Shown in pieces: positions 13,594 through 57,084 of a DNA stretch of 64,000 bases. A model generated the notes under the pieces. It made no database searches, had not been told where the DNA came from, and was given only the letters and a program-made list of their open reading frames with translations. The stretch's first letter is position 1, and each line of letters begins with the position of its first letter. The stretch spans positions 992,001 to 1,056,000 of the forward strand of contig CP142729.1 in NCBI GenBank assembly GCA_036630325.1, in the 5' to 3' direction. A program made the translations under genes and the position numbers. The stretch is from Vairimorpha necatrix (taxonomy: Eukaryota).

Positions 13594-13634
13594 CAAATAT
13601 TAATACGAACAAAGATCAAATTTTAAGTCTACAT

Positions 13635-16600: not shown

Positions 16601-17133
16601 TTATATATGTACGACCACGACAACTTTTCGGAAAATTTAACATGATCATATTTCCTATATTCTCTAGTAATCCGTTGATCACAAACGTTCCCAGAACATC
16701 CTCTGGTGTTCCGTCACGTTGCGACAACCCATTCATCTTGTCCAAATAACTCATAATAGACCTCCTTGAAATTTTGTCCAAACAATTTCCTTAATTGATC
16801 TCACGCCGACGTTTCCCCTTAAATCTCACAAAAAATTAACTAAGCAGCTCCTCAAATAAACACTCAAATGAAACTGTCTTAACCCATAGTTCCGCTTCCC
16901 CTCTTAGGGCAGCCCCCAAAACCCAAATAAGAGCTGACTTCTCTACTTATTATACCCCTTCATAACATCTTAAAGTCTTCAAAAAAGTATCAGGATCATC
17001 TTCTGTCCTCTCATAAAACTTTATCCCAAACAAATTTCCATTCGTTGTCGCCAAATTATTGTCTGTAAACATTTATCATAAATTAAGGGGTACAATAATT
17101 AAGAATAAATATTCCAGAAGAGTACATACCACA
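13635..17133 (-). mobile_element. Ty3/gypsy LTR retrotransposon A, degenerate, 77-bp LTRs
   Basis: LTRs 17057-17133 and 13635-13711. TSD TACAT at 13630-34 and 17134-38. PBS TGGCGACAACG, PPT, Zn knuckle, LLDSGS protease, and RT/RNaseH/IN remnants. Confidence 0.9.
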
Positions 17134-17149
17134 TACATAAAAACCGCCC

Positions 17150-17770: not shown

Positions 17771-17803
17771 TGAACTTTCTAAAAAATATCTTTTTTTTAG
17801 CCC

Positions 17804-21767: not shown

Positions 21768-23948
21768 GGATTCCCGAACCCAACATATTATCTTGAGTTT
21801 AAAAAGATTCCAATATCAAAAATATTCCCATGCAAAAAAAAACTTCTGTAAATCTAAACAATTTAATTATCTTTTTAAAGTAAAACAAATCTATTATTTT
21901 TTATTCCTTAATTTTCCTTCGGAAAAAAAAAATTGTTCTCACTGCGCTCGAACCCGGCAAAAACTTCGTTTTTGTGCGGGCTGGACGCACGTGCGCCCTG
22001 GGCGCTTGACATTTATTGTTTAGCTTGCGGCTATTTCTGATTTACTGTTGTTGTAATATAACCTAAAACTTAAAAATTTGTTTAATGATCAAAATTAAAT
22101 TTGAATCCCAACTGTCGGGTTACACTCTCTGTAGATATTTGATAGTATTTCAGCCAGCTTACATATTGCACAAATATTTGTAAAATTTACTATACTTGTA
22201 CCTTCTTCGCTGCACAACTCTTACTGTTTTCGATTGACTTATGATCAATTGCCTTAAGTCAACCCTCTTTGGCTTTGGATAAATTAAGTCAATCACTTTT
22301 TTTTTTGCTGATCCTATTCTACGCATAAAAAAAATTCGTCACGCGTCTTTCGATTGTATTTCTGGCGCATCTAAAATTTTTAATTCATTTTCGAATTGAT
22401 GTATCTTGCCTTTCTCCTGTTATAATCTGTTGATCAGTAATAAATGTTGCTTTATCACCATAGCTTCAAGTTTCATGTCATTATAAAGTTTTTTTGAATC
22501 GTTTTTCTTCAATTGACATGATGCTTTAAATCACAGTATCAAATGTCATAAATCTGATCTATCTATTTTTTACATTTTAAATAACTAAACTATTCTATCT
22601 GATTCTACGTTTATCAATAAATTTTTTTTTTCATTTTGGTGTGTAAAACTATAAAATAAGCACCCTTTCGATCTGTATATCCTTATAGGGAGTAATAAAT
22701 CTTATTTGATCTTCTTGTATATAGTATTTACAAAATATATCTACCACGGTTGTCTATTCTCATTTACTGTATTTAACATCGAAAGAAACTTTTTTTCATC
22801 TAACAATAAAAAAGAAGATGACAATGTTGTACTTATCAAGATAAAACTATTCTCTCAGAGAACAGTTAAGATGCATATAATGATCAGAAAAAAAAGTCAG
22901 TCAAAATATGGCTACTTGTTATGATAGAACTCTCCAAACGACTATTGCGAGGTGGCGATGAAAATTGTTTTTCACACATCTACAACTGTTGTTTAATTAA
23001 GGAATGATAACATGTGGAAAATATAGAATCGCTCTGCGTAGGAGGTGATTGAGTACTTGGATGTAAAAATAAGAGTAGATGAAATAATTATGCCGTATTA
23101 AACGATTTAGTACATTAAGCCTAATTTTTTATCATAGACAAATTAAGGGGAGAAATCACAAGTGTGGTATAGTAATTGTATTTATTTTCCGTAATTTGGG
23201 TTCGGAATATAAGAATATATAACATCCTCTCTTCAAGATGGTTAGTCTCCTACGTCATCATCAACTCTAAGCAGATATTTTAGGTCATAATGCCTTCTCT
23301 TTACTAATCGTCCATTCATCAATCATCATCATCATATATATAAAAGAATTTTATTTAATTTTTTACCCCTAAAACTCAAAAAAAGAGAAAATTTAAAATG
23401 GTAAAATTTTTGTTTTAAAACAAAATTAAATGCTTTCACTGTATTTTATAGACAATTTTAGACCAGATACATTATTTATATTTTGTATATAAATCATTTT
23501 TGAAATTATTAGAAATATGATTTTCTCCTTTATAATTTCTTCCTTTTAGAAAAAGAAAACAAAAACAATATGAAACAAAATGTAGAAAAAATTTGTTACT
23601 AATGTGTGAAATTAACTCAATTGGATTAAAATTTGTTACTGAATTAACTTTACCACTGCTATGTTGATTCAATAATAATACTTAACTTCTAAAAATCACA
23701 TTTGCTCCTTTTTAATTCTTCCTACCAGAAATGGAAATTCAAAAATCAAAACAAGAAACAAACATAATAAAGTTGATTTACAAACATTAGAAATTTATCA
23801 ACTGAATAACAAACTCAATTAATTAATATTTAGACTAATATCAAAGCTATTTATAAAAAATCATTTTCTCATTTTTGTTTTCTTCTTTCCCAAAATGGAA
23901 TTTTAATTTTAAAAACTATAAATACTTTTTTTTTTCTTTACCCCCATT

Positions 23949-26900
23949 ATGTTTACGAAAAATCAAACAAATTGCGATTTTAGTGAACAACCAAAAGCAA
24001 CTATCACTATCTCTCAGGAGATATGTAGTAATACTGAAAATGACAATGTTATTTTCTATGGGGCCAATGCCTCTGTACATAACACAAAAAATAAAAAAAC
24101 AAATGTCAGAGAAACAAAAAAAAGGAATTTCATATTCAGTTTCTCTGGCGAAAACAAAACAATTCTTAATCCAACAAACAGCACAGAAAAAACAGCTAGA
24201 TTAACAGATAACACAACAATGCAAACTTTGACAGAAAAACTAGATCTAGCTTGCAGAATTACTAGCAGAAACCACGCCGAACATTATTGTGGAGATCTGA
24301 AAGAAGAATGTGCCTTTTGTGGTGCATTACATTTTGCTGGAGAAGCAAGCAGTAATGGATTATACAAAAGCTGCTGTCATTTTGGGAAAGTCAAATTACA
24401 AAGAACTAGAAACTTCCCAAATGAGATTAAGAATTTATTCATTGGAAAAGATAAAGATGGAAAGAACTTCAAAGAAAATATTAGATCTTACAATGCTGCT
24501 CTTTCTTTTGCTTCTCTTGGTGCTCAAATAGAAACTGTGTCTAATGGTCCATATGTATTCAAAATACATGGACAAGTGTATCATAACACTTATAATGTAA
24601 ATAATATGGAATCTAATACACCAAAGAAATATGCCCAATTATATGTAGTGGATAGTGATATGGCAAACTCACAAAGAATGACGAATCCATCTAATAGAAA
24701 TTGTGATATATATATCATGAGCAAATTAGATGGATTTATAAGATCAGCCAATCCATATTCCAATGCGTATAAAAATATGTCTGAAATAATAAAGGAGCAA
24801 AAGGAAGTGGGGAAAGAAGTTAAAGACATTTCTATGGTCTTTAATAAGAATTTAGATAGAGATCAGAGAAGATATAATGCTCCCTCTACAAGTGAAATCG
24901 CAATGATTTTCACTGATCCAAATGGAGAACCCCCATTTGAGAGGGACATTAAAGTATATAGCAAGGGTTTTAATTCTGATAATTTACACTTGGATATTTT
25001 AAGTCCACATTTAGATCCAATGACATATACTTTGTTCTATCCACATGGCGAAGCTGGATGGAATGCAAATTTGAGGCTGGAGTCTTATCTAGGAGAGGCA
25101 CAGAAGATATCTTTGTTACAATACAAAGTAGCACAGATATCCATAAGAAAAGATAGATTCAACCCTTTGCTTTATGGAGGAAAGTTGTTTCAACAATGGA
25201 TTGTAGATTCATATCTACAAGTAGAAGCAAATAATTTAAACTTCATAAAATTAAATCAAAAGAAGTTGAGGGTAGATCTTTACAAAGGTTTGGTAGATTA
25301 TGTAAATAATGGGTCAGAAAGTTCTGCCAAGCCCGTGATCTTACCATCAAGTTTTCAAGGATCTCCAAGAAATATGAGAGAGAGATACCATGATGCAATG
25401 TCAATTGTAAGAAATTTCGGCAAGCCCGATCTTTTTATAACTATGACTTGCAATCCCAAATGGAAGGAGATTAATGAGAATCTATTTGAGGGACAGACAG
25501 CAGTTGATAGACCAGATTTGGTAGCAAAGGTCTTTAACTTAAAGTTGAAAAGTATGATGGAAGAGATTTTGGCAGGAAGAGTGTTTGGGGAAGTCGTGGC
25601 TCATGTCTATTCTATTGAGTTTCAAAAACGTGGACTTCCTCATGCACATATATTGATAATGTTAAAGGACAAGATTCGGGATGAAAATATGATAGATAAG
25701 TTTGTAAGTGCAGAAATACCATCGCCCATGGAAAATGAAGTGTTACACACCTGTGTAACAAAACATATGATTCATGGACCATGTGGACTAAGTAACTTGA
25801 CAAGTCCATGTATGGAAAATGGTCTCTGCACTAAGGAATATCCTAAGGAACATAATACTGAAACAAGGATCGATAAAGACGGATATCCTGAGTACAGACG
25901 ATCTAGAGGGGCCGAGTACAATGTAAGGGGCAACATTGTTACTAATGCTAACGTGGTCCCTTATAATGCTTATCTACTTGAAAAATACAATTGTCATATC
26001 AATGTAGAAGTTTGTACTTCTATCAAGTCAGTAAAGTATATTTTTAAGTATATTTACAAGGGATTTGATTGTGCTGAAATGAGAATAACTGACAACAATG
26101 AAATTGATCATTTTGTGAATTCCAGATATGTCTCAGCACCAGAGGCTACCTGGAGATTAATGGAATACAAGATGCATGGAAGATCTCATAAGATCCATAG
26201 ACTTCCTGTGCATCTTCCACAAGAACAATTGATCACTTTCGAAGAAGGCAGAGAAGAGGAAGCCGTTAGATTGTCCGATCTTAGACAGACTCCTCTTTTA
26301 GCCTACTTCAAATTGAATGAAGTTGATGAAGGAGCACATCGATTTTCGTATAGTGAGATACCCTATCACTATACATATAAAAGGGGAGAATGGATTAGGA
26401 GAAAGAATAAGTATAGTAAGATAATTACTAGACTTTATTCTGTATCTCCAATAGAGAAGGAAAGATTTAGCCTCAGAGTTCTATTGATCAATGTAAAGGG
26501 GGTTAAGTCATATGAGGATTTGAGAACTGTAAATGGTGTAGTTTACAGTTCTTTCGCAGAGGCGGTGGAAGAAAGAGGACTTCTTCAAGATGATAAAGAA
26601 TGGGAAAGGGCTTTGGATGAGGCTGTATCAACCGAGTCCCCATCAATAATAAGAGCATTGTTTGGATATATTTGTGCTTTCAATAAGCCTAAAAATACCA
26701 AAGAACTCTTTGAGAAGTATCTTGGAGATATGTCTGAAGATCTAGATCAGAATAGTAGAGACGAAATATTAAGTAGATTAAAAGATATAGTTAATGCTCA
26801 TGGATGGAGCTTAAATGCTCTGGGTTTAGATGAGCCGATTAACTATATCAAGAATGAAAGAGCCGTCTTTGATAATGAACAAGATCTAGATCAGATGATA

Positions 26901-28253
26901 TCCTCTTTGAATGAAAACCAGAGAAATGCCTTTGATATAATTACAGATAATATAGATAAAAGAGGCAATTTATTCTTTTTAGATGGACCAGCTGGATCAG
27001 GAAAGACATATTTATATAATGTCCTGATCGAGTATCTAAGTAAGAGTAAAAAATCTTCAATACAGATGGCAACCACAGGTATTGCTGCAGATTTATTAAA
27101 GGATGGAAGAACAATGCATAGTTGTATGAAACTTCCTGTTCCTTTGACAGAGACCAGCGTATCTAGACTAAAGCAAAATACTCCAGAAGCAGAGAGAATA
27201 ATAAAGGCCTCATTATTGCTGATAGATGAAGTTTCGATGATGTCAAAACATGCATTGGACGCAATAGATGAGGTGCTTAAAAGACTCTGTAATAATAATG
27301 ATATCTTTGGAGGGAAGACCTTATTGTTGGGTGGTGACTTTAGACAGACATCAACCATTGTAATGAAGGGTACTCCAAATGATATCATCGAGAACTCATT
27401 AATTAGTTCAAGACTTTGGGTACATGTCTGTGTACTAAAGCTTGAAACGAACATGAGATCTTATAATCAATTGGAGTTTAATAAGTGGTTGTTAGATATA
27501 GGTGAGGGGCGTACTAGAGATAGTAAAGGATGTGTGGAGATACCCAAAGAATATCTTGAAGAAGGGGACATAGTCGATAGCATTTTTGGAACAATCAAAA
27601 TTGAAGCAGGTGATGATTCTTTGTTTGATAAGATTATCTTAACGAGCAAAAATGAACATGCAAATGAATTGAATGCCAAAGTGTTAAACCTTCTCAAAGG
27701 ACCTTCGAGGGTATATGTGAGTTCTGATGCTATAGAATCAGAGGATATCGAAGAACAACTGAGATTTCCTCTTGAGTTCTTGAACATGCAACAGCCATCA
27801 GGACTTCCTCCACATAAGTTAGTATTGAAGATAGGGGCAATAGTGATGTTGTTACGCAATATTGATCCTAAGAATGGATTATTAAATGGGACCAGATTGA
27901 AGATAAAAGGTCTTAAAGATAATTACATCTTAGGTGAAATAATAACAGGAAGGGGAAGGGGCACCCTTGCTGTTATACCAAAGATAGACATGATGCCAAG
28001 TGACACTCTTCTTCCGTTTGTACTTAAAAGAAGACAGTTTCCTGTGGTATTGTCATATGCGATGACAATACATAAAGCACAGGGACAGTCTTTTGACAAA
28101 GTGGGAGTGTATTTGCCTGAGGATGTATTTTCTCATGGTCAATTATACGTAGCTTTGTCAAGAGTGAAGAAGAGTGAAAACTTGAGAGTCAAGTTGGGGG
28201 GAAACAGGGGCAATGTCAAAAATGTAGTTCTACGTGAACTAATTGGCCCATAA
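23949..28253 (+). CDS. Helitron Rep/helicase (HUH Y2 endonuclease + PIF1-family helicase), 1434 aa, uninterrupted
   Basis: CAFCGALHF..CC, PDLFITMTCNP, EFQKRGLPHAH, KYIFKYIYKG, GPAGSGKT, IDEVSM, TIHKAQGQS and HGQLYVALSRV. Confidence 0.97.
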   Translation: MFTKNQTNCDFSEQPKATITISQEICSNTENDNVIFYGANASVHNTKNKKTNVRETKKRNFIFSFSGENKTILNPTNSTEKTARLTDNTTMQTLTEKLDLACRITSRNHAEHYCGDLKEECAFCGALHFAGEASSNGLYKSCCHFGKVKLQRTRNFPNEIKNLFIGKDKDGKNFKENIRSYNAALSFASLGAQIETVSNGPYVFKIHGQVYHNTYNVNNMESNTPKKYAQLYVVDSDMANSQRMTNPSNRNCDIYIMSKLDGFIRSANPYSNAYKNMSEIIKEQKEVGKEVKDISMVFNKNLDRDQRRYNAPSTSEIAMIFTDPNGEPPFERDIKVYSKGFNSDNLHLDILSPHLDPMTYTLFYPHGEAGWNANLRLESYLGEAQKISLLQYKVAQISIRKDRFNPLLYGGKLFQQWIVDSYLQVEANNLNFIKLNQKKLRVDLYKGLVDYVNNGSESSAKPVILPSSFQGSPRNMRERYHDAMSIVRNFGKPDLFITMTCNPKWKEINENLFEGQTAVDRPDLVAKVFNLKLKSMMEEILAGRVFGEVVAHVYSIEFQKRGLPHAHILIMLKDKIRDENMIDKFVSAEIPSPMENEVLHTCVTKHMIHGPCGLSNLTSPCMENGLCTKEYPKEHNTETRIDKDGYPEYRRSRGAEYNVRGNIVTNANVVPYNAYLLEKYNCHINVEVCTSIKSVKYIFKYIYKGFDCAEMRITDNNEIDHFVNSRYVSAPEATWRLMEYKMHGRSHKIHRLPVHLPQEQLITFEEGREEEAVRLSDLRQTPLLAYFKLNEVDEGAHRFSYSEIPYHYTYKRGEWIRRKNKYSKIITRLYSVSPIEKERFSLRVLLINVKGVKSYEDLRTVNGVVYSSFAEAVEERGLLQDDKEWERALDEAVSTESPSIIRALFGYICAFNKPKNTKELFEKYLGDMSEDLDQNSRDEILSRLKDIVNAHGWSLNALGLDEPINYIKNERAVFDNEQDLDQMISSLNENQRNAFDIITDNIDKRGNLFFLDGPAGSGKTYLYNVLIEYLSKSKKSSIQMATTGIAADLLKDGRTMHSCMKLPVPLTETSVSRLKQNTPEAERIIKASLLLIDEVSMMSKHALDAIDEVLKRLCNNNDIFGGKTLLLGGDFRQTSTIVMKGTPNDIIENSLISSRLWVHVCVLKLETNMRSYNQLEFNKWLLDIGEGRTRDSKGCVEIPKEYLEEGDIVDSIFGTIKIEAGDDSLFDKIILTSKNEHANELNAKVLNLLKGPSRVYVSSDAIESEDIEEQLRFPLEFLNMQQPSGLPPHKLVLKIGAIVMLLRNIDPKNGLLNGTRLKIKGLKDNYILGEIITGRGRGTLAVIPKIDMMPSDTLLPFVLKRRQFPVVLSYAMTIHKAQGQSFDKVGVYLPEDVFSHGQLYVALSRVKKSENLRVKLGGNRGNVKNVVLRELIGP

Positions 28254-28261
28254 GAGCCAAG

Positions 28262-28374
28262 AGATGAAGAAATGCGCCGTGAGCGTACAAGCACTATGCC
28301 ATTTTTCTTCCAATAAGGATGAGATAAAAGATGATAAAATGCGCCGTGAGCGTACAAAAACTATGCCATTTTTT
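28262..28374 (+). repeat. Two-copy subterminal direct repeat in the Helitron 3' end (67-bp period)
   Basis: AATGCGCCGTGAGCGTACAA..ACTATGCCATTTTT at 28271 and 28338. Confidence 0.85.
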
Positions 28375-28430
28375 TAAAGAATAAATATAATGTGATAAAA
28401 TTAAAACATGTACCCATGCAAACACAAACA

Positions 28431-28462
28431 ACCCGTTCTCAGAACGGGTGTGCATACGCTAG
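28431..28462 (+). other. Helitron 3' terminal hairpin + CTAG
   Basis: 9-bp palindrome at 28431-28449 and CTAG at 28459-28462. Confidence 0.9.
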
Positions 28463-29754
28463 TTTCACTATATAAGAATCCCAAGGACACACAATCTTGA
28501 TAATCCTGATATCCAAAAATCTACCCTTTTTATACTTATTGCACCCTTTTAAATTTTCACTCTTTGTAACTTGCACTCTCCGTCCTTCGACGAACTTTTC
28601 TCTACATATTTTTTAAATCGCTTGCTATAATCATTTTCTGGTCATTTCTCGATATTACATTGCCCGTATTATCTTTAACTGCCATAAATAGTGTGCATCT
28701 TAGACCTTCATGGTAACTATTATTATATATCTTATGTGCCTTCATAACTCTTATTTCATAGCTATTTTTGGGATTCATTTTCAAAACAGATTTTCTTAAC
28801 GTACCTATGACGCTTCCAACTCTTACATTTCTTCTATGTGATTCAATACTGATCTTCTTGTAGGTCATATCCAACTTTCTACATAACTCTCTAAATTCCT
28901 CATTTGCAAATTCTCTTCCCTTGTCAGATATGATTTCTTCTGGTCTTTTAACATTTCTACACAAATATTCTATAAATCCAGTTATCGAGCTAGCACGCTT
29001 ATCTTCCAACACTCAACCCCATGCGACTCTCGTATAGTAATCAATAACACTAAAACGAATTTCCTCAAATCTCTATAATCGTTTAAATCCATTTCCACCT
29101 TTTCTAGGTTCGTACTTGTTGCAATAAAATCTCATCCCCCTGATTTTTTCGATTGTATTTTTGGCACTCATCACATTTTTTTATCATAATCTTTATATCT
29201 TCTTTTTTAACCGTTCAATAATAGTTAAATTTTATAGCATAATAAACACTTCCTAGTTTTCTGTAGGTCTGTTCTTCGTGGGACCTCTTCATGAACTCTA
29301 ACCTATCACCTAATGCGGGCATTCCGCCCTACGACCAGAATCAAAATTCCAGTACTCTTTGTCCTCGACCTTCTCAACGTGCTTTAACCATTTCCCCGCT
29401 ATCTGTTTCTCTGCTCTTCGTCTTATCATTTCTCTCTTCGGTTCATTTTCCTCATGGATTCTGCTCAATGCATCGCAACAACCATCTGGTCGGGTTGCCT
29501 ATATTCAATCTCAAAATCGAACACTTGAATCATCTCTTATTACTGTTATTTCCATTATTATTAAAACATGGCTTTCTCCTTATTTCTGCGAAAGCCTTAT
29601 GATCAGTTTTAACTTTAAACCTTCTTCCTCTTAGTTCATACTCAAATTTCATTTTGCCCCAAAATACAGCATATATCTCTTTCTCGCTAATTTCGTATCT
29701 AGATATAGTCGGAGTAAATTTTCTTGATGCCCATTGTACAGGCACTCATTTTTC

Positions 29755-30845
29755 GGTGCTTCTTTATTATGCGATCAGATTTTTTTTAAAAAAAATTCTG
29801 ACCCCCTAAAAATGGAAAATAGTGACTTTAAAATTTCTGATCGCATATCAAAGAAAAGCACGAAAATCAAAATAAAGGCAATACAAAGGCTTTCTATGGT
29901 TGTGACGACTGTTTAAACATATTACTTGAGTTAGAAGTCTCGAAAGAGCAAAAGACGTGCTTTAAATGCAATGAGATTTTAAATGTTGTATTATATAAGG
30001 AGAGAGAGGTTAAAAGAGTGGTTACAGGTGTTCTAATAATAATTGCAGTGCTAAAATATCAGTTAACAAAGGAAGCAAGTTACCTTTATATAATTTTTGT
30101 GAATTAATATTTTTAATTTTGTGTAAGAGTAGTTATTTTACTTTAGAGGCAAAACTAGGAGTTTCTTCATCAACAGTTTCCGATGCAAAAAAAAAAGAAT
30201 TAGAGAAATTTTAAAAACAAAATTTCTAAGAGGCTTATTATTGGTGGATCAGGAAAAATTGTCCAAGTTGATGAGTCTGTAATTTGTAGAAGAGGTAAAA
30301 TAAGAAATCCAACAAGTTGTGATGATATAATCCCTGATACTGTTTGAATACTAGGTATAGTAGAAGCATCTAATCCTACGAAGTTTTACATTACAGTGGT
30401 GGATAATAGGAAAGTCGAGTGTTTAACAGCTGCTCTAGAAGGTAAAATAGGCGTTGGTTCGATTTTTACATAGTGATGGTCATCCGAGTTATCCAAGTGT
30501 AGCACGAAATCTTTGTCTTGAACATAAGGTAGTAAACCACTCTATCGGGTTTAAATCTACAGATGGTACTCATACCAATAACATTAAGAATGTATGGTCG
30601 CAGCTAAAATCTGAAATGACCAAAGAACATGGAGTTAAGAGTAATGAAATTGATTCATGGCTCAATGAATTTATATTTAGGAAAAGTTTTGTAGAGGGGA
30701 CAATTTAGAAGAGTTTTACGACTGTTATGTTGATTTATTATATAATTTACATAATTAAATCAAATTTATAGTATTTTTTAACGTTTTTTCATATTTTCCT
30801 TTACAAGGGGGGTCTTGGTGTCCGATCGCATACCAAAGAAGCACC
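29755..30845 (+). mobile_element. Merlin-like transposon nested in gypsy B
   Basis: TIR GGTGCTTCTTT..TATGCGATC.GA, perfect 8-bp TSD CATTTTTC, and motifs VQVDES, HSDGHPSY, VVNHS, HTNNI. Confidence 0.92.
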
Positions 30846-32949
30846 CATTTTTCTTTTTAATTTTTCTGCATTTATACAGCTCCCATACCAATATTACTCG
30901 CATTCGTTCTTAATAAAATTCTTTCTCGTAATTAACAATCCTCAATTTTCCTTTTTCTCGAGCACTTTTTTTATATTCTCAAATTCAATATCCAACTCCT
31001 CAGTCCAATGTTAACTTTTGTTTTTCCCTCTTCGGCAATCTGTCATGTGAATCGTTTCTTCTATAAATCCTGTGAATTAACACTTAATCCTAAAAAATCT
31101 TCTTACGTCTATTACATTTTACGGCTTCGAGAACTCTAATGCCTCATTCTTTTTCATCTCAAATGGCATCATATCCTTTCCATTCAATGTTAATCCAATA
31201 ATTTAACTTCTGATTGACAATGCTATATCTTCTTCGAGTTTAATCTCATGTTATTCTCTTCTAACAGCGTCATTGTCTCTAAGAACAATCTGTCGTGTTC
31301 TTCTCTAGTCTTGGCGTGTATCACAATATCATCCATATAAACTTCTATACCTCTTCCCAAATATTTTTCAAAAATCTTATTTTTAATCTTTTGCATGATC
31401 TGTGGCTAATTTTCAAACCCCATGATCATGCTGTTCCACTCGTATACTTTCTTATTAACTCAAACGCGGTCTTGTGCTTATAAGCTTCTTCTATCTCAAC
31501 ACCCATAAAGGCTTCTTTAAGGTCAATAACGCTCATAATCTTATGACTTGCGTAAACCTAATAATATCCCTGATGTTGCATAGCTCATATGATCCTTTTC
31601 TACTAAATCGTCTAGTGCAATAAGATTACTGACTAAACGTATGCTACCATTCGGCTTAATTATAGCCTTTATCGGATTCCTCCATTCAGAAGTTGATCTT
31701 TTAATCACATTTCTTTCTTCTAAATCCTCTATGTGTTAAAATAGATCATTTTATGCGCTTGAGGAATCATCTGTCCCTTCTGCACGACTTTTTTATGCTT
31801 CGGTCTTTATTTAATATTTCTCTATTCTACGATATTTAATTCTTTCCTTATTTTTCATCAATAACGGTTTTAAATTTCTTATTAACATCTTCTAAAGTTG
31901 ACCCTTTAAATGCTGTCGTCTCGTAATTTCTCTTCTTGATCTCTTCTACTTTTCTAGTTTGTTCCCATAGTGATCCAACCTATCCTCTATCTGTTTCTTT
32001 CGTTTTTTACGGCCCAAGTATTCCTAATATCTTTCATCGCTGCTGCTACTGTCCTCTTGATATATCTTCTCACATTCTTGTTTATTCCTCTCCTCTCTGT
32101 ATCTATTATAACATCTATTACTTTATTGTACTACACTTTCACAATAAAAACATCTCATAGACCTCACATGCCGTCTCCTACGCACTATCTACTCTGTATA
32201 TATACCTTTTGTCAAATTCTTTGTGACCTCTTCAATCATTCTAAATCTCCCTTCTCCATCTTCATAATCTTTTACAATCTCTTTTAGTCGTATTCATATC
32301 ATGTCATGATGATCCTCTAAACTTATATTCATAACCATAAAAATTTTCAGCTCTAAACTTCCCTTTTCAAAAATAATTTTCTTCAAATCTTCATCGCTTT
32401 TACACTCAATAACTCAGATTTCTTTAACATGTTCTCATAATCCTGCAGAATTTTTATGGCCTCTTGGCCACAGCCAACACTTGTTAACTCACGATTTAGT
32501 ATCGAACCCATGTATTTATTTTCCATAATTGGGGGTTCGGAAATGTTAGAATATATAACATTATATTCATTAGATCTCATGGAGGTCAATTCTGCGAAAT
32601 TTCACCTCTAATTTTTCATACTTATTTGTTGTGATGTGCAATATTTAGATTATGTTTTCCAATAGCTGTTTAAGTATTTTTGTGTCGTTCAAAATTTAAT
32701 TGTCTATACACATAAAATGTATTTAGTTCTTTATAGTTTAATGTTTTCGTAGCATACAAACAAAATTTATTTGTTATTATATTGCTAATTTAATTATACT
32801 TTAACATCGCTTGCGAATAAACTTCACGTAATATTCTATAACTAATTAGGAAGTTAGATTAGCCTCTAGACCTTTTCTTGTTATCGCGCGATATATTTAT
32901 TTCGTTATTATATAAATATATATGTTACAATAAAGGTTATTATGTTTTT

Positions 32950-38302: not shown

Positions 38303-41300
38303 TGTCGTAGCCGATCAAATACTGACCAATCATATTTTACAAATAAACAGATTTGATTGGTTACAAAAAGTATTTAAAAACATTTATGAAAGGGGGGATG
38401 GAAAATTCTAATAAAACGTTTGACATGGCGACAACGACAAACAATGTCGAATGCTTCACAGGAGAAGCAGGTGAGGATGTAAATGTCTGGCCGAGAGACA
38501 TAATGTTGGTAAGGGAAGTTTCTAAATGGACCATTGATCAATTCAAAGCGGCATTGGTGAGCAAGCTCGGATAAAGCATTATCTTGGGCTTCCCAGACAT
38601 TAGGCGGAAAAATGGAGACAGTCAGCTTAGAGGAGATACTTCACTTAATGAAGAAAAGATTTGGAATATATAAAAACAACGATATAACACTAAGCAGGTT
38701 CCTCTCAATAACGGTCCCAGAGACGAGAGAAGATTACTCGCAGATGCTACAGTAAGTTACTGTAATATATGAGAGATCTCTTATAAATTTTGACGCTTGG
38801 TGCCAAATGGTCATAATAAATCACCAATGGAGATAAAAGCGCTGCTATACCAGACAGCAACTACAGTCCAGACGTGGCAAGGATTCATACAAAAGGCCGA
38901 GGAGATGTCGTGGATTCCATATCCCGATAAGATGTTAGCTAGGACTAAACTACACGACAACGCGGGCAGAGGGCCCCACACTAATTTTTACAAAGAAAAA
39001 GGATTTAAAAGAAGCACAATCCACGAAAAACCACTGCGACATAATAATAAACGGTGCACACTCCACGGGGAATGTAATCATTCCACAAGAGACTACAAGA
39101 CGTTAACCATAATACTCAATAGAGAAAGAAACAACTTGAAGAGAAAAAATATAAATGCTGTGTAACAATACGAAAGTGACGAGAAAGACCATGATTATAA
39201 AGAAATTGAATTTTTTTTACATCATGTACAAAATAGTTTTAACCCGTTTTTTTGTGGAAAGCCGTCTCTACAATAAAAATACGAAAGTACTACTAGACAC
39301 TGGGGCCGATGTTTCAAAAATTACAATGATATTCCACAGGAAGAACGTAATAAAATTATTAGATATAATGGTGTAGTAAAGATATGGGAAAAGAAATATT
39401 AAAAATAGAAGGCTAACTAAAAGACTCTATAATCGAAATAATGGAAAAGGCGCGATCTTCTCCCCCTTAATAATCAAAGACAAAAAATGCTATAATAGGA
39501 GCAAATGTGATATGCGACAATAAAAATTTGATCTTAGATATTCTAAATGCACCAAAATATAGAATCAACCAAATGTCGAACTTCGCATGTGATTTAGAAG
39601 AGAATTAAATTTTGAAAGAGTATGAAGACGTCATTAAAACAGAAATTAGCGACTTTAACCTCTGCACTGCAGGTAGTCCTCGTATACAGACGAACAGTAC
39701 AAAGATAATTTGCCAAAGGAACGGAAGAATACCAGTATCACAAGAAGAGGCCGTAAATGAAGAAATCAACAAACTCCTAGAACTTGGAATTTTAAGGGAA
39801 AGCAGAAGTCCCTGGTGTAGCAGAATACTGATGGTACCGAAGTCTGACAAAACATGGAGAATGTGCGTAGACTATAGAGGTCTTAATAGCATAACAGTAA
39901 AGGACGCATACATGACACCTAGAATCGATGAGATTTTTGACAGTCTATCAACTGCAACTATTTTTACAATACTGTACGCGTCTAGTGGATTCATCAAATT
40001 CCTTTACAAGAAGAAGACAAGGGAAAGACAGCATTTTCTTATAGGGAAAAGTATACGAATTTAATCGTATGCCATTCGGACTATGTAACGCCCCAGCAAC
40101 ATTTAAAAGGGCAATGGACAATATATTCAGGAAAGAAAACCAAAATTTTGTGATGCCATACTTAGACGATATTAATATATATTAAAAAAACAAGGAAGAA
40201 TATAAGAAACATGTGATTATATTATTGGGGAAAATAAGAGCGAGAAATCTATCGCTTAATAAGAAAAAGTGTAAATTTTTAAGATTGGAAACAAAGATTT
40301 TGGAGAACGTCATTGGTAACGGCAAAATACAGGTAGACGAATTGCGCATAAAGAATATACAAGCGTACCCAATTCCTGCCACCATAAAGGAATTAAGGAG
40401 TTTTCTAGGAATGGCCAACTATTGACAGGGATTTTGTGAGAAAGAAGGCAGAAATTACGGGACCCTTGTATGATGTACTTAAGTGCGAAAACAGACATTT
40501 AGTAAAAAAATTAAACTTACTGACAAGCAACTGGATACGTTTAAACCCGTATAAAAAAGTACTAAGCCAAAATACAATACGTAACAGCCAAATTTTAAAG
40601 CTCCATTCATTCTGGTTACTGACGCATCTGAAACGGGAATAAGAGCAGTGCTGCTGCAAAAGAACAAAGGTGGAGCTGAAAAAATGATAGCCGCCTTTAG
40701 CAAAAGACTGGATAATTGTCAGAAGAATTATTCAGTTACCGACAAAGAACTTCTTGGCTTAGCTAAAGGAATAGAACATTTAGACATTACCTTTTAAGAA
40801 GCAAATTTACGCTAAGAACAGACCACAAAGCTTTAATCTATCCATGGACAGTGAAGGATTCAACTAGTAGGATTCTCAGATGGGCTCTCAAATTGGAATA
40901 CGACTTCGAATTGGAGTATATAGAAGGAGAGCATAAGATTGCTGATGGTTTTAGTAGAATTCACCAAGAATGTGAAACATGTAACATTGATTTACATCAG
41001 TTATAAAATAATAACAAACTACATACTAGAGGAGTATCATAAAATATCAGGGCATGGGACATCAAATACCATGAAATTTATGATTTCACAGGCACATAAA
41101 AGGAAAAGAATGCACCATGACATATCGAAATTCGTAAGCAATTGCAAAACACGTCTACGCCCGGGATATCAACGCGTGAAGACAAAGAACAAAGTAATAC
41201 TTTCAGAGAGACCCAATCAGCTGTGGGGATTTGAACTGCTTGGGAAACTTTCGGACAACAGTGTAAGCGGATACATATTTGTAGCGATCGATCACTACTC

Positions 41301-42135
41301 TAAATGAATAGAAACCAAGATCATACGAAGCAAAAACAGCTGTGAAATATATAAGGCGACCAAAGAATTAATCATTAGTAAGCATGAAATACCCGAAAGA
41401 ATCTTGACAGACAACGGCTTAAAGTTTAACAACAGCGTAGTACAAGCATTAGGTTCGAAGTATAATATAGTATGGGGATTTTGTTCGCCATACCATCACC
41501 AGACTACAGATTGGTAGAGGGGGTCATACAAACATTGACGAACAAAATTAGAAAATTAGCAAACTATGACGAAATTGGCTGGGGAAAAGTTGTCAAAGAA
41601 GCTACATTGGCAGTGCATTTATCGTTTAACCGATCAATAGGAACATTGCCGTACATTCTAAAAATGGTCAGCAAATAACAACAGCGATAGATGAGAGAAT
41701 AAATGTTACCCCTAAGACCTATACGAAGCAAGAACTTATACGGAAGAGGGACTTAAACTTTAAAAAATACAGCAAATAATCGTTAAAGGAAAAAAAGATA
41801 TAAAGCAAAAGTTTAAAATAGGAGAAGATATTTTAGTTTACAGAGATTACCCAGGAAGTGGAAAATTAGAAGCTAAATGGAAACCTGGTTATATTATTGT
41901 CAAAATTTTAAGTGAAGACGCATTTCTTGTCAAAAGGAAAAATTCAGCAGGCGAATTGAGAGTTAACATAAGTCATATTAAGAAGGACACGTCGAAGACT
42001 GATTGAGGGGGTGTCATAGCCGATCAAAAACTGACCAATTATATTCTTACAAATGGACGGATTTGATTGGCTACAAAAAGTATTTAAAAACATTTCCGAA
42101 AGAGGGTATGGAAAATTCTAATAAAACGTTTGACA
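38303..42135 (+). mobile_element. Ty3/gypsy element C, degenerate, ~123-bp LTRs
   Basis: LTRs 38303-38425 and 42012-42135 (TG..CA), PBS TGGCGACAACG, PPT GAGGGGG, and motifs LLDTGA, RMCVDYR, YLDD, TDAS, AIDHYSK. No matching TSD. Confidence 0.92.
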
Positions 42136-43321: not shown

Positions 43322-43532
43322 CCTTTAATAAACTTGTGGTATCCACCACTGAGGAAAGTATTTAGAAGATTTTTATTATTGATTTCATTCTTTCTTTCCA
43401 TCATTTCGTACCCCTCTCCGGATAAAATATTTAAATAAGTGTTGGAGGGAAAACTGAACGAATTTGGAGGGAAAGATTTTAAAAATATATTTTATGATAT
43501 TTGGTATATCATAATCTACCTCTCCTTAGATT

Positions 43533-46369: not shown

Positions 46370-47238
46370 CTAAAGATCTTTATTAGTTTTTAATTCATCC
46401 GTTTTGATCTTACTATTTTTATTCTCAATTCTTTTATTTTTACTGTAACACTCACTGGTGTTATGAGTTCTTGATTTGTGTAAGCTACACCATCGATTCA
46501 TCTCATTTCTCAGTCTTGGTTCATTGACCTCGGCTTGAGAATTCTTAGTTAGCTCTAAGTCATTCCGAATTCTGACTACTAATCTTTCTCCAGGTTTATC
46601 AATAAGTATATAATGTCTTTAACACTCTTGGTATTAGATTTCATGACATAATCTTTGGTAGCGTCAGATAAAGCGTTCAAACAAATTTCATTAAACCTAC
46701 GCTCATACTCACTCTTGGTATATTTTTCTAAAAAGGATGCCACTTCAAGTTTGGCATCGATATCGGCAAACATATCCTCTATTAAATCATAATTTTCTTG
46801 TTTAATATCTAGCAATCTAACTCCTAAATTTGAGAATAAGTGATGCGGATATGAAATATTTAGTATTTCCTCCTTAAATTTTAAATAATTTTTAGAATTA
46901 TCTTTTCCTTTCCATTCTTCACTTTCGATCAAACTTTGTAAAACTAGAAGAGTCTCTTCCTCGTCCCATTCCAATTTATTTTTTAGTTCTTCGAATTTTC
47001 GAAACCATGCTAACATATTGGTTTTCTCGATATTAGTTATAATCTCTAATTGCTTAATTATAGGCTGCTTTAGGCCTTTGACATTGATCTCAAAGCTGAT
47101 CATGTTCCCTTGGTTTTTAATTTCTATCCTTTTATTAAGTTTAGGATACATCTCTGTTAAATTTAACTTGTGGTATCCACCACTGAGGAAAGTATTTAGA
47201 AGATTTTTATTATTGATTTCATTCTTTCTTTCCATCAT
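46370..47238 (-). CDS. gag: Gag (one frameshift near 46585; CSLHKSRTHNTSEC knuckle; ends at a TAG in frame with pol)
   Basis: ORF 46579..47238 plus a shifted continuation to the TAG at 46372-46370. Confidence 0.75.
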
Positions 47239-47878
47239 TTCGTATCCCTCTCCGGATAAAATATTTAAATAAATGTTGGAGGGAAAACTGAACGAATTTA
47301 AAGGGAAAGATTTTAAAAATATATTTTATGATATTTGGTATATCACAAAACAATTATTTAGAAATGTATTTTAAACTGGGTAAAGTCTTCAGTAATAACG
47401 TCAGCTATTACGAAAAAAAAATACTTTTGATATTAATGAGTCATAAACAATTTTATATGTTCAATAATTTCGTGTAATTTTTTTTCTAAAACTATTACTA
47501 AATGAGCACATTATGCGATAATAAAAATCTAAACGATCTTAAGAATTTATGGGGTTTCATGGACTAAAAAAAGACTATTTAAAAAATATATTCGTTTTGA
47601 ATGAAGAATTAAAAAATCGTAGTAAAAAACCAAAGAAAAAAAAATCAGAAACGTATAAAGAGATTGTGATTTAAAGCATTGCCAATTGCTAATGTGTGAA
47701 ATAATTGTCCCTATTAAAAAATTCGTCTCATCCCTTTAAAAAAGTTATTAAATAGACATTTAAGTCTAATATCAGCATTAGTGTAAAAAAAAGGGGTCAA
47801 AATTTTAAATAAATTGTCCCTTTTCTAAAAAAAAGAAAGAATGAGAAAACTTCAAAAAAAAAACTAACTTGTATTAAA

Positions 47879-50800
47879 AGTTATATTCTATAATATGATT
47901 GACCCCAATTTATGATAAATAAAGACATGGCGAATACAAGAAACAAAAAGTCGGCGCGTGAGGACTGTGGTCAGGTGATCAGAACGATACGGAATGAGTT
48001 TAGTATTATTATGTATGGATTGAGATTGAGAGAACAGTAAGGGATTGAATTGAAAGATATTTATAGTTTGGGTTCAGAGGATTTGAGAAATTTTATGGTA
48101 GAATATGTGAGGAAGGAGGACGGAATTGAGAAAATGGAGAAAATTTTAGAAGAGATGTATAGAGTAGAGGAAGAGCAGAGAGGAGAGAAAGAGATGTTAT
48201 AGGAGATGACGGAGAGAATCGTCAGAGAGGTAAGAGGAGAGATTGAACAGCAGAGGCGTTAGGCTGTGAGAAGAAGAGTTATAAGATTTTATGAGTGTCA
48301 GAGAATGGGACATAAGAGTGATAGATGTTATTACAAATATAAAGGAAAATAAAATAAAAAGGAGTGCAATGCAGTCTACGAAGATGATAGTAGTGTTAGT
48401 GAGCGGAGTGGATATAGGACGACAGCAGCCGCGGAGAGGCAAAAGAAGCCTACAAGTAGAGAACTTCCAAAAAGAAAAAATGAAGTTGAGGCAGCTGGAA
48501 GCGTTTTAGTACTTGAAGAACTGAAGTAAAAATATAGGAAAATGTTTAGTTCGGGAGACGAGGTTATAGAATATTGTACGATTGAAAATGTAAGATAAAA
48601 ACACAAGAGGGCGCTAAAGTAGTGAAGAAAGGACAGTGCATACCTCAAGCATTAATGGAGGATACTGAAAATTTTATTAAAGGACTGGAAATGAGGAAGG
48701 TAATAAGAAGATCGAATTCGGAATGGAGAAATCCAATAAGAGCGTTACAGAAAGCCAGATGGCGGAATAAGGCTAGTGAGTAATCTGATGGCCTTGAATG
48801 ATTTGGTTGAAAAGGATCCTTATTAGTTAATTAATATAAGAAACATAATTAGGAATACACAGGGTTCAAAATATTTTACGATAATTGACTTTGAGGAAGG
48901 ATTTTATAATATTGAGATCGACGAGGCAGATAAACATAAAACTGCATTTGAATTTAACAGAAGGGTTTTTGAATGGAATAGTATGGTTATGGGATACAAG
49001 AACTCCCCGCAGATTTTACAAAGAATAATGTATAAATTGTTTGAGAGACACTTGGGGAAAGGAATAGAAGTGTATATGGATGATATTGTTATACATGCAG
49101 CGACGAGAGAGGAGCACGATATATTGTTAGGAGAAGCACTTAGGAAGTTGGAAGATAATAAGATGATGATTAATATTAATAAGGTACAGTTATGCTTGAA
49201 GAAGGTAAAGCTATTGGGGGTTACACTGAATGGTTTAGAAATAACACCGTCTGAAAATAAACAAAACGAAACGTTAGAATTCCCAAAGCATAAAACGTGT
49301 CAGAAGTAAGGAGATTCTTAGGATTAACAGGATGGTTTAGAAGCTTTATAAAAAATTATGCGGATTTAACGGTACATTTGACCGACAGTTTGAAGGGTAA
49401 AAACGAATGGAATGAACACAAAATATGAAAGATGAATTTGTTAAGTTGAAAAGAAAGGTTAAGACTTTGGGAAAGTTGAAGATAATAAATTATGAAAAGG
49501 AGTTTTTATTTAGAACAGATGCGTCAAACATAGGAATCGGCGCGATAGTAATGCAAAAGAATGCCGAAGAGGAGTGGGTCCGGTACAGTGGGCTTCGAAA
49601 AAGTTTACTCCCACGGAATCAAGATACGGAATAAGCGAGAAAAAGATGTATGCGGTCTACTGGGGAATCAAAAAGTTCGAATATGAAATAAGAGGTCACA
49701 AATAAAAAGTTGAAACAGACCATAAAGATTTGATAGAAAACAGGAGAAAGCCACAATTCGAAAATAATAGGATTATAGGCGGATAGAGAAAGATTCAAGA
49801 GTTCGATGTTACAATTGAGTACATGAAGCCAGATATAATGGTAGTGGCCGATGCGTTAAGTAGAGCGCCTGTTGAAGAGACTGAGAAAGAGGAAATGATC
49901 AAGAAAGGAACAGTGAAATAAATCGAAGGAAAAGAGAAGAAACATACAGTATATGAAGATGGAAAGGAATACTGGGTCTTTGATAGTGGTATAAGAGCAA
50001 AGATACCAAAGGAGGAAAATAGGGCAAAGTTAATAATGAAATATCACGAAAATGGAGGTCATCGTAGTGTTGAAAGTGTTTATTATGCGATGAAGAAGCT
50101 TTACTATTGGTTAGAGATTAAGTCAGAGATTTATAATGAGTTATTGAAGTGTGAAAGATATCAAATTTATAATAGGAAGATGTCGGGCGGATGTGATTTT
50201 ATTAGTACCAGTAGATATTTAGAGAAAGTAGATTTGATTTGATTGAATTTCGCGACGAATGTAGGTACGTTTTGATTGGTGTTGATTACCATACTAGACT
50301 AATTTTGGGAATGAGCATGAAGGAAAAAAAGGCTCAGAATGTTGCTTGGTTTATAGAAAGTTTATGTAGGAACGGAAACCGACCAGAGGAAATAATAACC
50401 GATAATTTCAAGGAATTTGTTAACGAGGATCTTAGGATATTATGTAGAAGATTAGATAATGCATGCAGACAGATAAGCATAGAAAGCCACCATAGTAATG
50501 GACGTGTAGAGAGAGTAAAGGAACATTGAGAGAAGCTATTTTGAAAATGAAAGGCGATGATTTTGACGATAAATTTATGAGAGCGATTGATATGTACAAT
50601 AATAGTTACCACAGTGGGATAGATTGTACACCGAAAGAGGCGGTTTTGGATATTAGTGGAAAAGATATGATAGAAAATGGTCCTGAAGGAAGATACAGTA
50701 AGAAGTTTGTTAAAAAGAAGAGAGAAAAGTTTTACAGGAATCAGCAAGTACGAGTAGCGAAAAAAGAAAATTTGAAGGGATGTACTGAATATGAAAAAGG

Positions 50801-50996
50801 ACGATTTCTGGAGAGGGAAAAATTTACGCGATTTGTGGAGGAGATTCTTATATTGTACGATTGGAAACAGGACGGCTGGTGAAGAAAAGACATTATGATT
50901 TAAAAGGGGGTTTAAGTAAGTATGAGACTAACCGTCTTGGAGGGGGATGTTATATTCTGTAATATGATTGACCCCAATTTATGATAAATAAAGACA
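47879..50996 (+). mobile_element. Gypsy-type element D, 3118 bp, 49-bp LTRs
   Basis: LTRs 47879-47927 and 50948-50996, perfect TSD TTAAA, PPT GGAGGGGGA, and motifs VYMDD, TDASNIG, HENGGHR, TDNFKEF, SNGRVER. Confidence 0.93.
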
Positions 50997-51804
50997 TTAA
51001 ATAAAAAATGTAATTAATAAAATTTAAATATATATAAATTAAAAATATAATATTAATAATACTTTAAAAGTTTCCTGGCTCTCATTTTTTTAATCATATA
51101 TAGAGTTAATAAATTTCGGCAAGTTCGTATGTCTACACACATTGGATAGAGAGGCCTCAAGGGGTCTTAATATTTTTTGATGATGTTTATATGAACATCT
51201 GTAACTCTGTTTATATGTTCGACTATGATTTACAGTTATAAGGTCCGCATAATAATGTCTTAAAGTATATATGCCTTCCATATAACCGAATGGATGACAT
51301 ATAGAGATTTACCCATTTAAGCACGATGGAAAATAATGTATCTTTGTTTCTTTTATTATTTATTACGAGGACTATCTCCTTTGCCTTGGTTTTTTTACAA
51401 TTCCGAAACACCAAACCCCCTTAACAAGCCTCACCCTACGATATTTAATTTTGACGATTTTACTCTCATCTTTCTCTACTATAAAAAATTTCTCTTTTAT
51501 CCGTTTTATTATATATATACGCTTCTCATGAATTTTTAATTTATATAACTTCTATGGAAAACTTAAGTTTTGTATGTTACTTTCCGATAATCTTAAATAT
51601 TAATTATTTTTATTTCTAAAATCCAGAAATTTACTATTTATAACAAAAGTAAATATTCTGCTTAATTGTATGCAAATACAGTATGATTCCAAATTGAAAA
51701 TCTATGTTTTACATTTTGCAGCCTTACACCTCGAGGGCGGTTTCATTTGATACTCTTCTTTACCAACCTCATTTTATACTTTTCTGGTAGTATTTTTTGT
51801 TTGC

Positions 51805-52029: not shown

Positions 52030-54000
52030 AAAATCTACTAAAAATTTATTGATACGATCATGATTTGATCCAAGGCCTTTTCTATAATCGTATCTTAAGT
52101 ATAAACTATAATTTTCAATCTTATTTGTATCTCCACCTTCGTTGTTTTCAATATTTCCTATGATTTACTATTTTATGCTTTAATCCAAAATTATCCACGG
52201 CTTTAGTGTATGATGTATTTCCATAGTAACAACAATAGTTCACATAAGTATGCGTTTTTAAACTCTACTTTCAAAGTTTCGTGTTTTCCGTTATGAATTA
52301 ATGTAACATAAATTTCGTTCAATCACCTCTTCGACTCCTCCAAGTATCAATTGTATTTTAGTAGTATCGTCTTCTATGAAGACAGATTGACAATTACCAA
52401 GCCATTTAATATGATAGTTTCAGCGACTTTAACCCGTATATTTTCTTCCTATATTTTTTATTTTCAAGAAGTCTTGCTTAGAATATCCAAAAATTATTTT
52501 TTTTTAAATATATGTTGACTCGGCTATTTTGAAGATATAAACTAGCTTTATAGTTTAAGTAAGAAAATACCCGCAGATAAACCTTTCAGAATCTTCTAAA
52601 ATTCGATGGTTAATCTATAATCAAGTGTTTTTCTTAATTATTATTTTTTTTGAATTTTTCAATACATATGTTCTTTTTCTCATAAATTGAGAAAATAATG
52701 GCGCTACTTCATTTTCTTGCCCCCCCTAAAAAAAACATACATAAAAAAATACAAAATCGTGTTATTTTTCAAATCTAAACATTTTTTTTTTGAGGGGGGC
52801 AAGAAAATGAAGTTAAGGTATTTTTTTTGTCGATTTGAGAATTTTTAAATGCCTCCTTCAGATTCCTCATTAAGGGGTTAAAAAATTTTAATTTTTTAAT
52901 CCTTAATAAGAAATTTAAAGGAAGCTATTCGGGAGCTAAATATCTGCGAAGATGCGTGCTTTAGGCACAATGAAGCAGTAATTGATTTTTTTTAGATAAT
53001 AGTCTTCTAAAAAGATCGATTGCTTGCAGACATTGTTCGACATCAGAACGAACTGTTCTTATGAACATTAATGGATGTTCCGGCTAAATTGACGGCAAAG
53101 CTTATCGTTGTGTTAATAAAAAGTGTAGTTCGAAGAGCTCACTTAAAAATGGTACGATTTTAAAGGGATAAGCGTTCAATTTCACAGAATTCTTAGAGCA
53201 TTCTATGTCTGGGTATTAAATTATACTACTTACCAAGCAATATATCTTTGCAAAATATGTGAAAATTCATATATTAAAATCAAGAATACAGTGATGGAAG
53301 TCATTGCTTCTAAAAGCGATGATAGCTACCAAATATGAGGAACTTCTGTTTGTGTACAATTTGATGAAACCGCCATATGCAACGGGGAAATTGTATCCAA
53401 TCCTCCTTCAACTTTGGATTCCATGTCTGGAATTCAATGGATTATAGGCGGCATAGTAGAAGGTAACTGTAGAGAATTTGTTCTTGAATTGCTACCGAAT
53501 CGACAATCTGGTACTATTGAAGAGTTTTTTAGACACAGAGTAAAACGTGGCTCTATTATAATTTCTGATGGATACCCTTTATGCCCCCAGCCTCTAAAAA
53601 ATTTTGGGAGTGAACATTACAAAGTAAATCAATCGCTTGGGTTTATAAATGCGGAAGGAGACCACACAAATAATATAGAAAATTTGTGGTCCCATTTGAA
53701 GAATGAATATAGATCGAGAATGGGGCTTAAAAGGCATAGGATAAATTTATTTCTAAAAGAATTCGCTTGGAAAAAAAAAATATCAATTATTTTAATAATG
53801 ATGATCATAGGTGTGCTTATATAAAAATTTTAAAACTTTGTAGGTTGGAATAAATAAAATTTCTTCTAAATAATTTTTTTTCTAGGGGGGGGGGCAAGAA
53901 AATGAAGTAGCGCCAAAATAATTATAGCACGGACATGTTACCTAAACATGATTTTAAATACATAAGCTGTTGGGCATTATTTCATCTAAATTTATTCGAA
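52030..54000 (-). mobile_element. Highly degenerate Merlin interrupted by another Merlin (ends uncertain)
   Basis: Minus-strand VKVAET, SYTKAVDNFGLKHKIVNH and DTNKIEN at 52110-52440. Confidence 0.5.
52700..53914 (+). mobile_element. Merlin transposon (1215 bp)
   Basis: TIR GGCGCTACTTCATTTTCTTGCCCCCCC, perfect 8-bp TSD AAAATAAT, and motifs QFDET, WIIGGIVE, ISDGYP, HTNNIENLW. Confidence 0.93.
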
Positions 54001-57030: not shown

Positions 57031-57084
57031 GTAGATTATATAATTTCAAAAAAAAAATCGTTTTTTAATGGTAATACTTCTAAA

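Follow-up and report, generated by a model that had tools for sequence, protein, structure and literature searches.

We analysed 64,000 nucleotides (nt) of Vairimorpha necatrix DNA (GenBank assembly GCA_036630325.1, contig CP142729.1, positions 992,001 to 1,056,000 of the forward strand), referred to here as the window, in which element D (47879-50996, plus strand) is a dead Ty3/gypsy-type retrotransposon whose long terminal repeats (LTRs) measure 49 nt. A first-pass annotation had placed 49-bp LTRs at 47879-47927 and 50948-50996, and both are borne out: the copies are direct repeats, 47/49 identical, and the repeat occurs exactly twice in the window when up to 3 mismatches are allowed (against 0.00 copies expected from 100 shuffles). 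The flanking features listed by the annotation, namely a target-site duplication (TSD) TTAAA, a polypurine tract and a TGG, are likewise all present at the ends of the element, and an empty-site contig agrees with them. The features of D are given below.

47874..47878, plus strand: left copy of the TSD TTAAA; the identical 5-mer stands at 50997-51001, and the contig of run X1 holds a single copy
47879..47927, plus strand: 5' LTR, 49 nt; CCCC at LTR positions 25-28, first ATG at 34-36, AATAAA at 40-45, terminal CA
47912..50962, plus strand: degenerate polyprotein frame comprising gag with a decayed CCHC knuckle, reverse transcriptase (RT), RNase H (RH) and integrase (IN), with several stops and frame changes
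47928..47945, plus strand: putative primer-binding site TGGCGAATACAAGAAACA, adjoining the 5' LTR and inside the coding frame (codons MANTRNK)
50926..50947, plus strand: conserved 3' block GACTAACCGTCTT and polypurine tract GGAGGGGGA, the latter ending at 50947 and abutting the 3' LTR
50948..50996, plus strand: 3' LTR, 49 nt, TG...CA
50997..51001, plus strand: right copy of the TSD TTAAA, matching the left copy

The two repeats are separated by 3020 nt, and TGGCGAATACAAG starts at 47928, directly after the 5' LTR. Pfam domains follow in the order RVT_1 (2.1e-28), RT_RNaseH_2 (1.2e-09), Integrase_H2C2 (1.7e-09) and rve (1.7e-07). In a tblastn comparison, residues 1-1005 of P0001, an intact relative introduced below, map onto D 47912-50908 in 7 pieces. 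The 5' LTR begins with AG instead of TG, its first base being one of the two mismatches with the 3' copy.

A second element of the same family, B, spans 32560-23177 on the minus strand and consists of the following parts.

32511..32560, minus strand (5' end at 32560): 5' LTR, 50 nt, homologous to the D LTR and followed by TGGGTTCGATAC; the first ATG is at LTR position 35
23225..32510, minus strand: internal region with remnants of a D-family polyprotein, holding a Helitron (~23350-28460) and a second insert (~29770-30840)
23177..23224, minus strand: 3' LTR, 48 nt, preceded by GACTAACCATCTTGAAGAGAGGA and located by searching with the 5' LTR

The LTR lengths of 50 and 48 bp given for B by the annotation thus hold. 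The pair is 88% identical (50 alignment columns, including two gaps of 1 nt), both copies are TG...CA, and they align over their full length with those of D, from TGTTATAT through the terminal ACA, with the same motif order. The order that had been noted for B and D (TG, A/T-rich run, CCCC, AAATAAA, CA) is indeed found in both elements, except for the AG at the start of the 5' copy of D. At the protein level the RT pieces of B and D share 40-60% amino acid identity, and P0001 residues 1-990 map onto B 32526-28460 (tblastn). Solo LTRs of the D or B type were not found in the window.

Two insertions interrupt B. The Helitron nested in its 3' end (~23350-28460) carries an open Rep/helicase frame of 1443 amino acids (aa) at 23922-28250 on the plus strand (Pfam: Helitron_like_N 4.4e-62, PIF1 1.4e-55); it parts the last codons and the 3' LTR from the rest of B, displacing the 3' LTR by ~5 kb. 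The other insert, of ~1.07 kb (~29770-30840), breaks the RNase H region, has short similar sequences containing 'gcgatc' at both edges and holds an open frame in the opposite orientation, features that a small DNA transposon might show.

Using the RT fragment of D as query in a protein search with a cut-off of E<=1e-10, we found 48 longer protein relatives. Some of these are named as proteins of Nosema granulosis, Vairimorpha necatrix, V. apis and Enteropsectra breve, which supports the microsporidian setting assumed in the first-pass annotation. Six relatives (P0001, P0003, P0004, P0007, P0013 and P0015) are uninterrupted single polyproteins of 1014-1024 aa. For four of them (P0001, P0004, P0007 and P0015; 1014-1019 aa) the longest contigs measure 3141-3159 nt and exceed the open reading frame (ORF) plus stop codon by 87-99 nt in total; contig ends are no proof, but so small an excess fits short LTRs. 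The P0004 cluster comprises 31 member sequences. A zinc knuckle, RT, RH and IN are matched by Pfam in P0001, P0007 and P0015, in the same domain order as in D. In P0004, RT, RH and IN are matched without a zf-CCHC match at E<=1, while a Cys-Cys-His-Cys pattern is visible in its sequence.

Related elements with DNA ends come from a metagenome bin that contains 49 matches to the family polyprotein profile. Two of them are intact: L006 has perfect 58-nt LTRs and a 1095-aa frame, and L010 has perfect 75-nt LTRs and a 1154-aa frame. L009 carries LTRs of 176 and 172 nt, and all three show an ATG across the CA|TGG junction. Their target duplications do not match, and these metagenome contigs may be chimeric across copies. 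A further relative, L003, lies in the same bin; its 3' LTR pattern, searched there, found only itself. A scan of viral contigs gave no relative.

In D and B the coding frame extends into the LTRs, a point that the annotation had not raised. The D frame opens at the ATG at 47912 (LTR positions 34-36) and reads MINKD and then MANTRNK, its second methionine being formed by the last A of the LTR and the TG of the TGG site (CA|TGG), in frame with the first ATG. Likewise, the B frame reads MENKY and then MG across the LTR junction, and in both elements the first ATG lies 5-6 nt after CCCC. The relatives show the same arrangement at the protein level: the N-terminus of P0001, MINKDMANTRNK, matches the LTR-encoded MINKD+MANTRNK of D, and that of P0003 (MENKYMG) matches MENKY+MG of B. 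As CA|TGG predicts, Met-Ala or Met-Gly stands at residue 1 or 5-7 residues past an earlier methionine in 10 of the 11 relatives with a complete N-terminus (P0013 is the exception). The motif MANT[RK] is kept in D, P0001, P0012, P0019 and P0028, which is expected if those codons double as the primer-binding site. In yeast Ty1 gag also starts inside the 5' LTR, and the Ty1 LTRs are several hundred bp long; unlike this, the leader encoded by the LTR of the D family amounts to 5 codons in 49 bp.

At the other end, the final frame of D crosses the purine tract and ends at a TAA formed by positions 13-15 of the 3' LTR. L003/P0025, L006, P0011 and P0020 likewise read on across the purine tract into the TGTT with which the 3' LTR begins; other intact relatives stop a few codons before that point. 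The conserved block and G-rich tract before TGTT recur in B, L002 and L003, and are encoded at the C-termini of P0011 and P0020. The polypurine tract adjoins the 3' LTR both in D (GGAGGGGGA) and in B (GAAGAGAGGA), with similar tracts in L002, L003, L009 and L010, and TGG directly follows the 5' LTR in D, B, E (a further window element, described below), L006, L009 and L010. A start inside the LTR is general among the window elements, and a CCC or GGG motif precedes the in-LTR ATG by 0-8 nt in four of the five window elements (D, B, E and C), and L010 has ACCC directly before its ATG.

These motifs can be compared with what is described for microsporidian genes. Rapid amplification of cDNA ends in Encephalitozoon cuniculi gave 5' untranslated regions shorter than 7 nt and, directly before the start codon, a CCC-like (rarely GGG-like) motif with an A/T-rich signal upstream of it; the same promoter signals are reported there for Nosema ceranae and other species (PMC2803860). 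The D LTR reads TG, A/T-rich run, GACCCC, AATTT, ATG, which is this published core-promoter layout. That a promoter and a poly(A) signal are packed into the 49 bp, as the first-pass annotation had proposed, is nevertheless only inferred from such motifs.

The position of the ends of D is documented by an empty site. One contig of the public run X1 joins 47878 to 51022 via 20 letters that resemble 51002-51021; it lacks exactly element D and one TTAAA. Compared with 51022-51450, its flank shows 25 differing letters and 4 gaps, and the site is empty, either as an orthologous or as a paralogous locus. Because the contig lacks D and one TTAAA, the insertion ends of D are fixed exactly at the 49-bp boundaries. 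The annotation had also raised the possibility that such repeats are truncations of longer LTRs. The empty site, the same size and layout in B, and the LTRs of the intact relatives all speak against this: perfect repeats of 58 and 75 nt indicate that short LTRs are a property of the element group and not damage peculiar to the window. Together, these results support the view that the LTRs of D and B are complete and genuinely ultra-short. Of the other elements, A has a TSD (ATGTA on both sides) and B has none.

As a separate observation on run X1, its summed contig depth peaks at 67,219 over 47723-47863, an A-rich region close to the left end of D, while the remainder of the stretch covered has values from tens to ~6,000. 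The peak may reflect very high-copy or low-complexity sequence.

Overall, we consider it likely that D and B, both decayed, belong to one very compact (~3.1-kb) Ty3/gypsy-type family of Nosema/Vairimorpha-like microsporidia, whose complete LTRs are 48-50 bp long and whose coding and cis functions overlap. Such an element could work as follows. U3 would run from LTR position 1 to ~28-33 and hold the last codons and stop (in some copies), the A/T-rich stretch and CCCC, with transcription starting past CCCC, within the 5-6 nt that precede the first ATG. R would be the remaining ~17-21 nt up to the last base of the LTR, leaving U5 absent or a few bases long. It would carry the first five codons, of which the Asn-Lys codons spell AATAAA. 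In the 3' LTR this hexamer may direct cleavage at the terminal CA or up to a few bases beyond it (flank bases past the LTR would no longer be copied once the first strand transfer has taken place), while in the 5' LTR it would lie too near the start site to act. A tRNA primer would anneal to the TGG site, which coincides with codons 6-10, and prime minus-strand synthesis there; the strong-stop DNA of ~20 nt would then transfer to the 3' R, and plus-strand synthesis would be primed at the G-rich purine tract. We propose that it is this near-complete overlap of coding and cis functions that allows the LTR to be so short. An R of this size would have precedents, since R lengths of 10 bp (Sire), 11 bp (MMTV) and 21 bp (RSV) are listed in PMC3601003.

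A number of observations weigh against this interpretation. Neither copy in the window is alive: several stops and at least 6 frame changes break the D frame, and B, divided by its two insertions, has no matching target duplication (TATAA against ATTAC). The related loci are imperfect witnesses as well, with L003/L004 lacking its 5' end, L002 being degenerate without a recognisable 5' LTR, and L001 showing no LTR beside its chimeric frame. From one sublineage to another the sequence of the TGG site varies, and the window holds 0 tRNA genes that could pair with the putative primer site. Relatives starting with MNINVH, MEINVH or MIQVNH would not encode AATAAA at that place. Moreover, in D and B just 4 nt separate AATAAA from the end of the LTR, less than the ~20 nt that usually lie between AAUAAA and the cleavage site (PMC2803860), which makes cleavage inside the LTR doubtful; the same source describes AAUAAA recognition in E. 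cuniculi as stochastic. The start site, the poly(A) site and the U3/R/U5 partition are all putative assignments from motif positions. Lastly, the family may not be autonomous, as no protease is detectable.

On this last point, which the annotation did not mention, the family appears to lack a protease. An aspartic-protease match in Pfam is found in 0/4 intact relatives (P0001, P0004, P0007 and P0015) at E<=1, and a profile comparison (hhalign) of the family alignment with the protease of element C gives a probability of 0.04%. The proteases of element C and L010 are matched by Pfam at 6.7e-11 and 3.5e-08. Between the zinc knuckle (125-139) and the conserved N-terminal region of RT there are ~85 poorly conserved residues. 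Such a lack prompts one to ask whether the polyprotein needs any processing and, if so, by what means it occurs.

Since only ~28 nt lie upstream of the proposed start, and a start inside the LTR is argued from motifs, it might be argued that the 49-bp repeats are true ends without a promoter, in which case transcription would come by read-through from neighbouring genes or elements, a common event in microsporidia, and the LTR would provide only a short R for strand transfer and the integrase ends. For E. cuniculi, both transcription overrun and transcripts spanning several genes are documented (PMC2803860). We nonetheless regard this as unlikely: both LTRs can be regenerated only if the RNA begins inside the 5' LTR, whereas read-through RNA from upstream gives no defined 5' R, and CCC or GGG followed by ATG recurs in L010 and in four of five window elements, as though a start site had been selected for at this place.

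Less probable still is the idea that D and B are deletion derivatives of a functional family with ordinary LTRs of >100 bp. The death of both window copies, from which the D-family DNA ends were read, leaves some room for it, but two elements that diverged independently would each have had to undergo the same loss in both LTRs, and the empty site places the insertion ends at the 49-bp boundaries. Furthermore, the N-termini of relatives include residues that correspond to the final 15-18 nt of the short LTR, immediately before the junction ATG, the four ORFs of 1014-1019 aa sit on contigs with only 87-99 nt extra, and intact related elements have perfect 58- or 75-nt LTRs. Finally, only the small size of the repeat would favour its being due to chance or an assembly artefact instead of a mobile-element terminus; with 0/100 shuffles giving 2 matches, a repeat that precisely brackets a gag-RT-RH-IN array and an empty site in an independent run, this can practically be dismissed. 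Two other element classes were considered for D and rejected: the DIRS/Ngaro type, given the presence of a DDE integrase and a 5-bp duplication, and TRIM/SMART, which are non-coding and <~1.5 kb against ~3.1 kb with a full gag-RT-RH-IN frame in D.

Among known systems, the closest comparison for the ~3.1-kb family is with the microsporidia-specific Ty3/gypsy groups with a single gag-pol polyprotein, which were described from Nosema genomes along with elements of the Merlin and Helitron kinds (Parisot et al. 2014, PMC4202319). The likeness concerns the RT-RH-IN order, the one polyprotein ORF and the presence in genomes of the Nosema type that also harbour Merlin and Helitron elements. The D/B family fits this microsporidian single-polyprotein kind, as an atypical, protease-less and ultra-compact relative. 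The main text of that paper gives no LTR lengths, reports no missing protease (the word 'protease' occurs 0 times) and describes no overlap between LTR and coding sequence, and its supplementary consensus sequences may already hold such elements (PMC4202319).

Very short LTRs with TG..CA ends and a 5-bp duplication are also reported for FRetro129/SMART of grasses (85-bp LTRs) and its putative partner FRetro64 (76 and 90 bp) (PMC3281118). These are a non-coding element of 292 bp and a Ty1/copia element of 5.2 kb, respectively (PMC3281118), whereas the D family is of Ty3/gypsy type, measures ~3.1 kb and has 48-50-bp LTRs that overlap the frame. TRIMs (terminal-repeat retrotransposons in miniature) share the 'tiny LTRs (<100 bp)' (PMC10741241), but they are small and non-autonomous, in contrast to the D family, which codes for gag, RT, RNase H and integrase. 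Compared with the short-R elements Sire, MMTV and RSV (PMC3601003), the proposed R of ~20 nt in the D family is within range; what would set it apart is a U3 of ~28-33 nt, a U5 of ~0 and the location of both ORF ends in the LTR.

A usual LTR range of 85-5000 bp is stated in 10.1101/137141, and LTRs of 194 bp have been called 'very short' (PMC3701649). Our literature search, which did not cover Repbase or Dfam, found no description of LTRs as short as 48-50 bp, and none for microsporidia. The D/B LTRs are thus the shortest that we could find in print, the smallest otherwise being 76-90 bp, or <100 bp for non-coding TRIMs. If the reading as a coding element with 48-50-bp LTRs is true, the known minimum for a promoter, strand-transfer homology and integrase ends combined would be lowered, and the family would illustrate microsporidian compaction, with cis signals nested inside codons. 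More tentatively, and with somewhat less than even confidence, it may be that among the protein-coding LTR retrotransposons described none has shorter LTRs than the D family (48-50 bp) and none is smaller (~3.1 kb). The family would then have U3, R and U5 of ~30, ~20 and ~0 nt, a start codon in the 5' LTR and a stop codon in the 3' LTR (in some copies), a primer site and poly(A) hexamer that serve as codons, and no protease; active copies may persist in Nosema/Vairimorpha-type genomes.

The expectation of the first-pass annotation that default LTR finders, with a minimum of ~100 bp, miss such elements is consistent with the default minimum of 100 bp given for LTR_FINDER (PMC10741241) and the setting -minlenltr 100 (10.1101/137141). 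Finders run at this minimum would miss elements with LTRs of 48-50 and of 58-77 bp, so that both LTR-retrotransposon content and insertion dating in microsporidian genomes may be underestimated.

The five LTR pairs in the window (A, B, C, D and E) are all short, with D and B as the extremes. The LTRs of the other three elements are as follows.

17057..17133, minus strand: 5' LTR of A, 77 nt; duplication ATGTA upstream at 17138-17134; TGGCGACAACGA begins 3 nt downstream
13635..13711, minus strand: 3' LTR of A, 77 nt, 63/77 identical to the 5' copy and followed by ATGTA at 13634-13630
38303..38425, plus strand: 5' LTR of E, 123 nt; GGGGGG and then an ATG at LTR position 96; junction CA|TGGCGACAACGA
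42012..42135, plus strand: 3' LTR of E, 124 nt, preceded by GATTGAGGGGG
47165..47345, minus strand: 5' LTR of C, ~181 nt; gag ATG at 47238, which is LTR position 108
43331..43511, minus strand: 3' LTR of C, ~181 nt, 98% identical to the 5' copy

For A, the LTRs of 77 bp and the TSD TACAT that had been annotated are confirmed, the flanking ATGTA being TACAT on the plus strand; its LTR ends with ATA, not CA. Elements E and C have longer LTRs and were absent from the annotation. E (38303-42135) has no matching target duplication (TATAT against GTCTC). C (47345-43331, minus strand) is apparently intact, with frames for a 248-aa gag, a 572-aa PR-RT-RH (protease, RT and RNase H) and a 378-aa IN. Its 5' LTR is not followed by TGG, and a near-palindrome, TGGTGGATACCACA, stands at the LTR end; together these suggest that priming in C may be unusual.

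The junction ...CA|TGGCGAC is common to E, L009 and L010, and A has TGGCGAC 3 nt after its LTR. Among these elements the LTR lengths are 75 (L010), 77 (A), 123 (E) and ~176 nt (L009), and three of the four share the LTR start TGTCGTA. Within one lineage LTR length thus varies more than two-fold, from 75 to ~176 nt, while the ends stay the same.

The profile behind the 49 matches in the bin of L003, L006, L009 and L010 is that of a eukaryotic LTR-retrotransposon polyprotein, and the genome record that holds them (G001) is titled Clostridium sp. MAG. Several of its contigs (C261, C373, C375, C351, C348 and others) carry open frames of 1095-1309 aa, and C260 carries one of 1946 aa. The retrotransposon contigs of this record look like mis-binned eukaryotic repeats.

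Finally, a large family of diverged repeats occupies 5978-18800 and 54181-64000 of the window, with copies ~3010, 4050 and 7050 nt apart. It includes frames for transposases of the Merlin/IS1595 type at 10357-10926 and 53339-53821.

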